From assembly GCF_025362455.1 (NCBI RefSeq), contig NZ_JANYGJ010000095.1, forward strand, positions 254 to 64,253: 64,000 nt of DNA, read 5' to 3'. A program made the position numbers and the translations under genes. Position 1 is the first letter of the stretch; each line of letters begins with the position of its first letter. This DNA is from Deinococcus sp. (GTDB taxonomy: Bacteria; Deinococcota; Deinococci; Deinococcales; Deinococcaceae). The notes beneath the pieces were generated by a model that saw nothing but the letters and a program-made list of their open reading frames with translations, was not told the DNA's origin and did no database searches. This document shows positions 61,908 through 63,003 of this stretch, piece after piece.

Positions 61908-61910
61908 ATC

Positions 61911-62378
61911 GGGAAGTGGGGAGTGGGAAGTAGGAAGTGGGAACGACGCCAGGTGCTGGTGGCGGGCCGCGCCGGGTGCAAGAACTGGGCGTTTGGCAAG
62001 ACGGTATGCGGCTCGTCAAGGTTTTGTATCAGTTGAGCAACGACTGGCCCGACACAGAGAAATATGGCCTGATCAGTCAGGTTCGGCGGGCAGCAGTCTC
62101 CATCCCAGCAAATCTGGCGGAGGGGCTAGGTCGGGGCTCGCCAGGAGAGATTGCCCGATTCACCAGAATTTCACTCGGCTCCGCCTATGAACTCCACACC
62201 TTGCTCTCGCTCGTCGGTTTTCTCGGCATCAGCACCGATGCTCAGCTTGAACCAGCCGTATCCGCCATTGAGAGTCTTATCCGTCGACTCTCCAGCTACA
62301 TCAAGTACCAGGAGGCCCAGAAATGACCGATACCTCTTCATCTGTTCCCACTTCCCACTTCCTACTTCCTACTTCCCA
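61911..62378 (+). mobile_element. Heptamer-armed cassette carrying a four-helix-bundle gene
   Basis: Left arm (GGGAAGT)n 61911-61944; right arm CTCTTCATCTGTTCCC(ACTTCC[C/T])n 62334-62378; interior visibly less GC-rich. Mobility is inferred. Confidence 0.6.
61937..62326 (+). CDS. Four-helix-bundle protein (23S rRNA IVS protein/bAvd-like family); start 61937 or 61976
   Basis: [35 protein letters not shown] and ISLGSAYEL family signature. Confidence 0.92.
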
Positions 62379-63003
62379 ACGAGCGAACCTCCCCGTTCAC
62401 ATTCTCATCATCGACAACTACGACTCCTTCACCTACAACCTGGTTCAATACTTTGGTGAACAGGGCTGTGAGTTGACCATCTGGCGCAATGATGCGTTTA
62501 CGTTGGATGATGTCGAGAAACTGAATCCGGATGCCATTGTCGTCTCGCCTGGCCCCTGTACGCCGAACGAGGCCGGGTTGAGCGTGGACGTGATCCGGAC
62601 CTTCGCGCCACTTTACCCGCTGCTGGGTGTCTGCCTGGGGCACCAGAGCATCGGGGAGGCGTTCGGGGCCACCGTCAGGCGTGCTCCGGTGCCGGTACAC
62701 GGCAAGACCAGCCGCGTCCAGCACGATGGGCAGACGATTTTTGCCGGACTGGGCGGCGAGGCCACCGTCACCCGCTACCATTCGCTGATCGTGGAAGACC
62801 TGCCACCCGAACTGATCGCCACCGCCTGGACCACCGACCAGACGCCGGAGGGCGAGCAATCCATCCTGATGGCGCTGCGCCACCGCGATTACCCGGTGTT
62901 CGGGGTCCAATTTCATCCGGAAAGCATCGCCACCCAGGACGGCAAGGTTATGATTCGCAACTTCCTGAACGAAGTGCAGGCGCACAAGGCGAGGCAGCCG
63001 TGA
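62323..63003 (+). CDS. trpG: Anthranilate synthase component II (glutamine amidotransferase)
   Basis: [28 protein letters not shown] and GVQFHPES motifs; repeat-derived N-terminal insert. Confidence 0.96.

Follow-up and report, generated by a model that had tools for sequence, protein, structure and literature searches.

We describe here the trpE-trpG junction of a Deinococcus species, analysed in a 64,000-nucleotide (nt) stretch of contig NZ_JANYGJ010000095.1 (the window), where a cassette at 61911-62378 occupies the entire interval from the trpE stop to the core of trpG. It is a cassette of the intervening-sequence (IVS) type, in which a four-helix-bundle (4HB) gene of the PF05635/TIGR02436 family lies within inverted arms of GGGAAGT-type heptamers. 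We propose with considerable confidence that this cassette supplies the start of trpG, that one of its arms codes for a tail on TrpG, and that the translational relay from trpE to trpG is kept. The observations behind this proposal are the anatomy of the cassette, the lack of an alternative start, the short TrpG N-termini of cassette-free relatives, and a layout conserved in the phylum and at other genes.

Anatomy of the cassette and the start of trpG

The trpE TGA (61905-61907) lies 3 nt 5' of the left arm, and the junction comprises the following features.

60456-61907, + strand: trpE, anthranilate synthase component I (PF00425 1.5e-88, PF04715 8e-36)
61911-61944, + strand: left arm, a G-rich inverted array of GGGAAGT-type heptamers with ~75-127 genome matches per position
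61937-62326, + strand: 4HB gene (PF05635/TIGR02436), 129 amino acids (aa) from GTG 61937 or 116 aa from GTG 61976, single copy in the assembly
62309-62326, + strand: 3' module of the cassette, CAGGAGG (the C-terminal Q-E codons of the 4HB gene, serving as candidate Shine-Dalgarno sequence), a 7-nt spacer and ATGA
62336-62378, + strand: right arm, with the family core CTTCATCTGTTCCC and a C-rich heptamer array, family boundary at ~62336
62323-63003, + strand: trpG, anthranilate synthase component II, 226 aa (PF00117 at residues 28-217)

The assignment of the 4HB protein is secure: it scores 97 bits against PF05635 (cut-off 33.8) and 98.3 bits against TIGR02436 (cut-off 24), matches the solved pentameric four-helix-bundle protein XCC0516 (PDB 2GSC) at an E-value of 1.9e-20, and contains the conserved RxxxSxxxNxxE motif quoted for the family (PMC3936711). 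The two arms pair over 34 nt (61911-61944 with 62344-62377, 88% complementary by an inverted-repeat search) and are built of the tandem 7-nt units GGGAAGT, GGGGAGT and AGGAAGT, about five imperfect units lying in the trpG frame. An arm 17-mer, equivalent to two and a half heptamer units, has 19 matches in the window at up to 3 mismatches, against 0.15 expected from shuffles. The gene is therefore carried in the loop of a long terminal-inverted-repeat stem whose arms consist of tandem 7-nt units, as in the IVS-type, heptamer-armed cassettes. It is not a 23S rRNA intervening sequence in the strict sense, being located between trpE and trpG in a stretch that gave no rRNA match. Arms with an inverted-repeat score of at least 12, mostly with a 7-nt period, accompany 22 of 30 Deinococcus 4HB-family loci, and armed loci of this family number 55 of 75 across phyla. 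A site scan of the cassette interior found no plus-strand promoter-like site and no terminator-like site with a convincing T-run, and an Rfam search of 60100-62500 returned no known RNA family, giving only sub-threshold chance matches of a neighboring mini hairpin (described below) to miRNA-precursor models.

The initial annotation of this DNA had pointed to GGAG/AGGA and an in-frame GTG at 61937 in the left arm. Within the arm we find the Shine-Dalgarno (SD)-like sequences GGGGAG and AGGAA, followed by GTG 61937 as the first in-frame GTG of the 4HB gene, whose frame is shut 5' of this codon by a TAG at 61931-61933. There are two candidates for the start of the gene, GTG 61937 within the arm, from which the SD-like sequences are badly spaced, and GTG 61976, which lies nearer to the start of the family profile.

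At its other end the 4HB gene is joined to trpG. Its TGA overlaps the trpG ATG as ATGA (62323-62326), as had been noted before, and a canonical AGGAGG absent from that earlier description lies at 62310-62315, 7 nt 5' of the ATG. The two genes thus show both a stop/start overlap and an SD sequence within the upstream open reading frame, as expected of a translationally coupled pair, and the same holds in the trp-junction copies of other genomes. The earlier observation that neither ATG nor GTG recurs between 62323 and the TrpG core motif withstood verification in all frames, and the search extends it to in-frame TTG. No in-frame ATG, GTG or TTG separates start and motif in six other intact Deinococcus copies either, so that no canonical TrpG start is found 3' of the arm in any of them. 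The right arm, which had been described as an in-frame part of trpG encoding a peptide ahead of the core motif, does appear there in the translation: it has no stop in any frame and would encode TrpG residues ~5-19, the heptamer array alone residues 8-19. From these data the trpG start most likely lies in the cassette, with the arm translated as a tail of TrpG.

The cassette-encoded tail would comprise TrpG residues 1-25 and is rich in Pro, Ser, Thr and His; the glutamine amidotransferase (GATase) fold begins at about residue 26-28. An AlphaFold model computed from an 8-sequence alignment gives pLDDT values below 50 for residues 1-21 and places the first strand at 26-31, which, together with a Pfam GATase match that starts at residue 28, suggests that the extension is a disordered tail. 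This TrpG aligns with the C-terminal part of NCBIfam models for TrpE-TrpG fusion proteins, and N-terminal attachments to the TrpG domain therefore exist in nature.

We propose the following course of events. The operon transcript would run through the cassette, and ribosomes that end the 4HB frame, or that are recruited by the strong SD sequence, would initiate TrpG at 62323 and then traverse the stop-free, C-rich right arm. The product would be a TrpG with a ~25-residue Pro/Ser/Thr/His-rich tail, predicted to be disordered, ahead of its normal first strand. Given the stop/start overlap and the stop-free arm, the cassette would not break the translational relay from trpE to trpG. It would also be hard to lose, since a clean deletion would remove the ribosome site and start codon of trpG. 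Translation from 62323, the coupling and this lock-in effect are what we infer from the sequence.

Conservation of the layout across Deinococcus and the phylum

A sample of 61 Deinococcus genomes contains eight (G000, G001, G002, G016, G020, G036, G037 and G056) in which a 4HB gene has trpE and trpG as its immediate neighbors. The arrangement is identical in all of them: the trpE stop, a G-rich arm, a 4HB gene ending in ...YQExxx, CAGGAG(G), 8 nt, ATGA, an in-frame C-rich arm and the motif xDNYDSF; the start of G036 is exceptional in having GTGA for ATGA. The distance from start to motif is 18, 19, 21 or 29 codons among the seven intact Deinococcus copies, which have different heptamers, and it is always in frame. 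Cassette-free relatives do not share the extension, their TrpG N-termini (for example MTHILLIDNYDSF and MTAPHILLIDNYDSF) beginning 2-10 residues before the motif. The initial annotation had named two outcomes that would overturn its reading, a TrpG start past the arm and an equal extension in relatives free of the cassette, and neither was borne out. While the 4HB gene is intact, with its RxxxSxxxNxxE motif, in most copies, it is broken in G001 (by a premature stop), G144 and G157, all of which retain the trpG frame from the ATG. G053 has no 4HB gene, but keeps a GTGG left-arm stub after the trpE stop and the SD sequence and GTG start seen in its close relative G036, from which we conclude that it is a deletion derivative of a G036-type cassette.

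The layout extends well beyond the genus. A sample of 151 genomes of the phylum, searched for this 4HB subfamily at an E-value of at most 1e-22, yielded 19 carriers: 11 of 78 Deinococcus (10 of 77 others plus the source genome), 2 of 15 in a second genus and 6 of 6 in a third; another genus had none among 27. All 20 loci of these 19 genomes, from three genera and three families, read trpE-arm-4HB-ATGA/GTGA-arm-trpG. The nearest public relatives of the 4HB protein, 45-57% identical, come from a Deinococcus metagenome-assembled genome (MAG), three Thermaceae MAGs, Oceanithermus profundus, a Trueperaceae genome and an uncultured bacterium, and in every case the gene lies between the end of trpE and a trpG that starts at ATGA, with the heptamer arm read through. 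Taken together, 28 of 28 junction copies (the eight genus-sample genomes, 13 more from the phylum sample and seven public Deinococcota or uncultured loci) have ATGA or GTGA and an open frame into xDNYDSF, despite their different arms and tail lengths. The initial annotation had held that the arm has become coding sequence, and the ATGA or GTGA and the open frame of every trp-junction copy argue for this. The association of the cassette with the trpE-trpG junction is old.

The same 3' end is also found outside the trp operon. The C-terminus ...(F)IxYQExxx-stop, ATGA and an arm-coded tail precede rfbB (after rfbC) in one Dehalococcoidia genome and in one uncultured bacterium, and a glycosyltransferase gene in a deltaproteobacterial MAG; CAGGAG-N8-ATGA/GTGA is common to the trp-junction, rfbB and glycosyltransferase copies. 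This recurrence suggests that SD sequence, start codon and translatable arm form a module of the cassette subfamily and not an accident of the trp operon. Deinococcus 4HB copies in front of ilvC, tpiA and pdxH have TAA, TAG or TGA as their stop, with the following gene beginning past the arm.

Other 4HB lineages in Deinococcus are coupled in a like manner to a membrane alpha/beta-hydrolase gene (L036, L038-L040, L042, L045, L047 and L058) or to a PhzF-like gene (L050 and L057), with the heptamer arm read as N-terminus; at L053 the hydrolase gene starts beyond the arm, 42 nt after a TAA. One Thermaceae MAG (L063, about 1440-1500) shows the corresponding arrangement on the other side of the junction, where the trpE frame continues into the left arm and gives a short arm-encoded C-terminal extension of TrpE.

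The trpE-trpG junction is itself a variable slot in Deinococcus (L003-L031, 29 genomes), with an occupancy that differs between sister species. It holds nothing (86-158 nt), a GNAT-like, a tautomerase-like, a small 'WYYAMCD' or a HIT-like gene, or the 4HB cassette, and the stop of most guest genes overlaps the trpG start in a similar ATGA.

Alternative explanations and the origin of the cassette

Several points weigh against our proposal. Both candidate starts of the 4HB gene have only weak or badly spaced SD-like sequences, and this ambiguity makes the coupling of trpE to the 4HB frame uncertain. In some Deinococcus that lack the cassette, the native trpG ribosome site (TCAGGAGACCC-N4-5-ATGAC) is similar to the cassette's 3' end, so that in some lineages either could be the source of the other. 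Right arms with no stop in any frame favor our proposal, as they occur in 24 of 27 coupled and 24 of 61 uncoupled members of a set of 88 non-redundant armed cassettes, but this statistic is partly circular and its rows are mutually related. Finally, the arms are predicted to form a ~33-bp RNA stem that closes the cassette in both the minimum-free-energy and the centroid structures (z -4.3), and a cut by RNase III would part the ATG from the body of trpG. An equivalent 28-bp stem in the 23S rRNA of Coxiella, which encloses a gene of the same protein family, is cut by RNase III (PMC4990558). Judging from the predicted fold, either the stem would be held open by translating ribosomes, or partial cutting would lower TrpG output.

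This last point leads to the alternative that the arms are mainly a processing stem for RNase III or another nuclease, with the cassette excised from the trp mRNA and TrpG lowered or gated as a result. The predicted stem itself and the excision demonstrated for the Coxiella IVS speak for it, as do the Correia elements, which are cut at their inverted repeats when present in mRNAs (review PMC10969869). However, a cut in the right arm leaves the trpG body without a start, which is hard to square with the conservation of SD sequence, ATG and frame throughout the phylum; ribosomes on the right arm would melt the stem; and G036 keeps the layout without complementarity between its arms. We consider this explanation unlikely.

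A second alternative is that the 4HB gene is not selfish but an old, selected member of the trp operon, its product acting as a regulator or assembly factor of anthranilate synthase and its arms as regulatory RNA. The same junction in three families, its presence in 6 of 6 sampled genomes of one genus, and the intact gene with RxxxSxxxNxxE in most copies would fit such a role. The distribution is nevertheless patchy (11 of 78 Deinococcus with the source genome included, 0 of 27 in another genus), near-identical species differ, and a tree of TrpG and TrpD requires 7 changes for 7 cassette-bearing rows. In relatives the slot holds GNAT-like, tautomerase-like and other guests, three copies have a broken 4HB gene beside a retained trpG, the same subfamily precedes rfbB and a glycosyltransferase gene elsewhere, and the family at large occurs in many unrelated contexts. 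A selected function in the operon is, on this evidence, quite improbable.

Another possibility is that TrpG is initiated 3' of the arm, at a non-canonical codon such as ATT 62398 or one of the CTN type, which would make the ATGA overlap and the open frame incidental. A right arm of this composition cannot contain TAG or TGA and has no TAA, and because such a C-rich arm lacks stops anyway, the open frame taken alone is weak evidence. Yet no purine-rich SD sequence precedes any downstream codon, every copy has CAGGAG 8 nt ahead of a canonical ATG or GTG, the frame persists through at least four tail lengths and unrelated arm sequences, and deletion derivatives and broken-gene copies retain exactly the 62323-type start; we regard a downstream start as very improbable. 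Equally hard to credit is phase variation, in which the trpG frame would shift whenever a 7-nt unit is gained or lost: tandem 7-nt units do lie within the coding frame, their turnover is fast (two adjacent right-arm units distinguish the near-identical G016 and G062) and some relatives have ~10 of them (L155), but the units here are imperfect and only ~5, 28 of 28 copies are in frame, and switching would bring no evident benefit to a housekeeping gene such as trpG.

Turning to the origin of the cassette, we considered a single ancient gain in Deinococcus followed by vertical descent and rejected it on the number of changes that the TrpG+TrpD tree requires. A comparison of G015, which has no cassette, with G016, which has one, shows flanks that are ~97% identical; the identity breaks off precisely at the trpE stop and is regained ~seven codons ahead of the motif, with the CCCTCCGCC... 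codons of trpG. The 66 nt that lie in between in G015 give way to ~437 nt in G016, and the native spacer is swapped together with the first trpG codons. This replacement, and the absence of a duplication in G015 versus G016, rule out a simple insertion with target duplication. The initial annotation had spoken of a cassette integrated into the junction, and this holds insofar as the cassette fills the junction; a recent simple insertion does not fit the lack of a target duplication and the age of the association. A miniature inverted-repeat transposable element (MITE) or a cut-and-paste transposon was likewise rejected, as there is no border duplication, no transposase in or beside the cassette, and no relationship among the interiors of 50 paired elements in the genome.

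The present distribution could stem from loss, from re-insertion, or from an exchange of alleles in which the conserved trpE and trpG flanks recombined homologously. The tree of the 4HB proteins is poorly resolved and cannot separate the three; the source-genome copy falls outside the main Deinococcus trp-junction group. The other five sampled members of the source-genome clade carry a GNAT-like guest and no TIGR02436 gene.

Strict compensatory evolution of the arms is unsupported, since the heptamer arms of G036 no longer pair and G016 and G062 differ in the right arm only. In the latter two, which are nearly identical (L055 and L143), the left arm is the same and two adjacent right-arm units read CCCACTG twice in one and CCCACTT twice in the other. 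Heptamer units appear from these sequences to change in concert and not always in a compensatory manner.

The trp operon, heptamer arrays and related systems

The region around the cassette is a trp operon that appears to be under attenuator control. The three successive Trp codons of a candidate leader peptide assign the entire region to a trp operon of the attenuator type, and the candidate attenuator lies immediately 5' of a gene-less mini hairpin and trpE. The remaining features are as follows.

60258-60308, + strand: candidate trp leader peptide, 16 codons, with three consecutive Trp codons at 60282-60290, identified by direct reading of the sequence
60331-60368, + strand: terminator-like, GC-rich hairpin with a run of 7 T, the candidate attenuator 3' of the leader peptide (stem 60347-61 and T run computed, longer stem by reading of the sequence)
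60369-60444, + strand: gene-less mini hairpin of the same heptamer family (repeat pairs D1 86%, D2 90% and I3/I7; RNA fold -37.9 kcal/mol, z -4.0)
63000-64000, + strand: start of trpD, GTG 63000, overlapping the trpG stop as GTGA

Stop/start overlaps form a chain from the 4HB gene through trpG to trpD, the second being the GTGA at 63000-63003. Just one more TrpG-like frame exists in the genome, within a 668-aa fusion encoded on a different contig, and the trpG at 62323 is presumably needed for this reason. Three 13-nt units (TGAACAAGCACTT-like) stand in tandem at 60185-60224, in the interval that separates the trp leader from a divergent panC-like gene, and could be a regulator binding site or a promoter element.

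The heptamers of the cassette arms are abundant in the source genome. We count 217 arms of this type, 50 of them paired within 3 kb, with interiors from 10 nt to several hundred nt that are mutually unrelated; repetition is confined to the arms and a ~14-nt core. The mini hairpin at 60369-60444 shares the inner junctions of the cassette, ACGAC after the left arm and CTTCATCT before the right arm. It is the exception to our rejection of the hairpins as internally deleted 4HB cassettes in the manner of MITEs, as the interiors match neither the gene nor each other. A search of the long arm pairs (interiors 246-1383 nt) for other cargo genes found none that was convincing, the 1383-nt pair being two hairpins around a permease gene.

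The abundance of the arrays may be linked to the presence of the gene. A two-unit (14-nt) probe gives 154 matches in the source genome and 0-8 in the five closest sampled relatives. Elsewhere, trp-junction cassettes have arms that match the heptamer amplified in the genome of the species concerned: the GCGCGGT heptamer of G020 gives 51/45 matches against 6/9 for the control, and the GTGGTGA/GTGGTCA heptamer of G002 and G036 is amplified, although the reversed-pattern control is invalid here because it matches the same arrays. With GGGAAGT and GTGGTGA as probes on the 61 genomes, and uncorrected for kinship, the median number of heptamer arrays is 27 for genomes with any TIGR02436 gene and 4 for non-carriers. 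The same two GTGG-type probes find at least 20 arrays in 12 of 21 carriers and 2 of 40 non-carriers, again uncorrected for kinship. The two array-rich genomes without a TIGR02436 gene include G053, the bearer of the trp-cassette deletion remnant. The link between gene and hairpins is a lead and not a result.

The right arms of trp-junction cassettes (L001-L160, sense strand) have a CCAC core per 7-nt unit in nearly all cases, with units such as CCACTTC, CCACAGG, CCACGCA, CCACGAT and CCACCTC, or GTGG-NNN on the opposite strand. The three variable bases of the GTGG-NNN units differ by lineage, as expected of a periodic recognition site.

Following this lead, we tentatively suggest that the 4HB cassette may be the gene-bearing ('autonomous') form of a transposase-less element, whose protein would act in trans on GTGG-NNN arrays and make, copy or maintain the gene-less hairpins. 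One subfamily may then have evolved an SD sequence, a start codon and a stop-free arm, and so come to occupy essential stop/start junctions without polarity, locked in by entanglement with the downstream gene. This idea, which we hold to be doubtful as it stands, draws on the co-occurrence here of one 4HB gene and ~150 arms of the same heptamer, neither of which is found in the five closest sampled relatives, and further on the species-specific match of arm and heptamer and the array medians of carriers and non-carriers.

The closest known counterparts of the cassette are the open reading frame-bearing intervening sequences of 23S rRNA, namely the S23p IVS of Coxiella burnetii and that of Leptospira (PMC4990558, which cites Ralph & McClelland 1993). 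They share with the cassette a PF05635 protein, a gene in the loop of a terminal-inverted-repeat stem (28 bp in the IVS, ~33 bp in the cassette), tandem heptamers beside the start of the reading frame, and a unit of ~440-470 nt. They differ in location, the IVS residing in helix 25 or 45 of the rRNA and the cassette in mRNA between two enzyme genes. The cassette, unlike the IVS, would supply a strong SD sequence and start codon to the next gene and have one arm read as protein. For the Coxiella IVS, excision by RNase III has been shown, which would be harmful for the cassette, and its reading frame is thought not to be expressed (PMC4990558).

Translated repeats are known from the Rickettsia palindromic elements (RPE), which lie in frame in housekeeping genes and are translated as a tolerated extra peptide (PMC10969869). 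In both systems repeat DNA would be translated in frame, a likeness that for the cassette is suggested by frame conservation and the lack of another start. RPE are gene-less, ~150 bp long, inserted inside reading frames and code for a conserved peptide, whereas the cassette carries a gene, has one coding arm that forms an N-terminus, brings its own SD sequence and start, and yields a peptide that varies with the heptamer. Translational coupling by stop/start overlap was reportedly described by Oppenheim and Yanofsky in 1980 for trpE-trpD and trpB-trpA of E. coli. The ATGA-type overlap, the SD sequence within the upstream coding sequence and the linking of two anthranilate synthase subunits are alike in both operons; in ours, however, the upstream partner of trpG is not trpE but a guest 4HB gene, and any coupling would be relayed through a foreign frame.

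Intergenic heptamer repeats have been reported as GGGAATC in Xanthomonas and GGGGAYT in Nostoc (PMC4692102). Like the units described here, they are G-rich 7-nt tandem repeats at gene borders, present in many copies per genome and unexplained in function. The cassette heptamers differ from them in that they build paired, inverted arms that have a core in common (GGGAACAGATGAAGGG / CCCTTCATCTGTTCCC), and the only 4HB gene of the genome is enclosed by one such pair. The cyanobacterial STRR are further heptamer repeats. A literature search combining the 4HB family name with heptamers or inverted repeats found no paper on such operon cassettes, within a thin coverage of subscription journals.

IVS-type 4HB genes and bacterial heptamer repeats are two old and unexplained features of genomes. 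The case described here offers a concrete way in which a cassette could live in an essential, tightly coupled operon, by supplying an SD sequence and a start codon and by having a stop-free arm that is read as a harmless tail. If true, this would explain the tolerance of the cassette, its persistence at the trpE-trpG junction across the phylum, and the retention of its 3' end whenever it is partially deleted. As a consequence, gene callers and annotators will set the start of the downstream gene wrongly or miss its chimeric N-terminus. Deinococcus, being transformable and easily grown, provides a direct experimental system for the function of the 4HB protein and of the heptamer arms.

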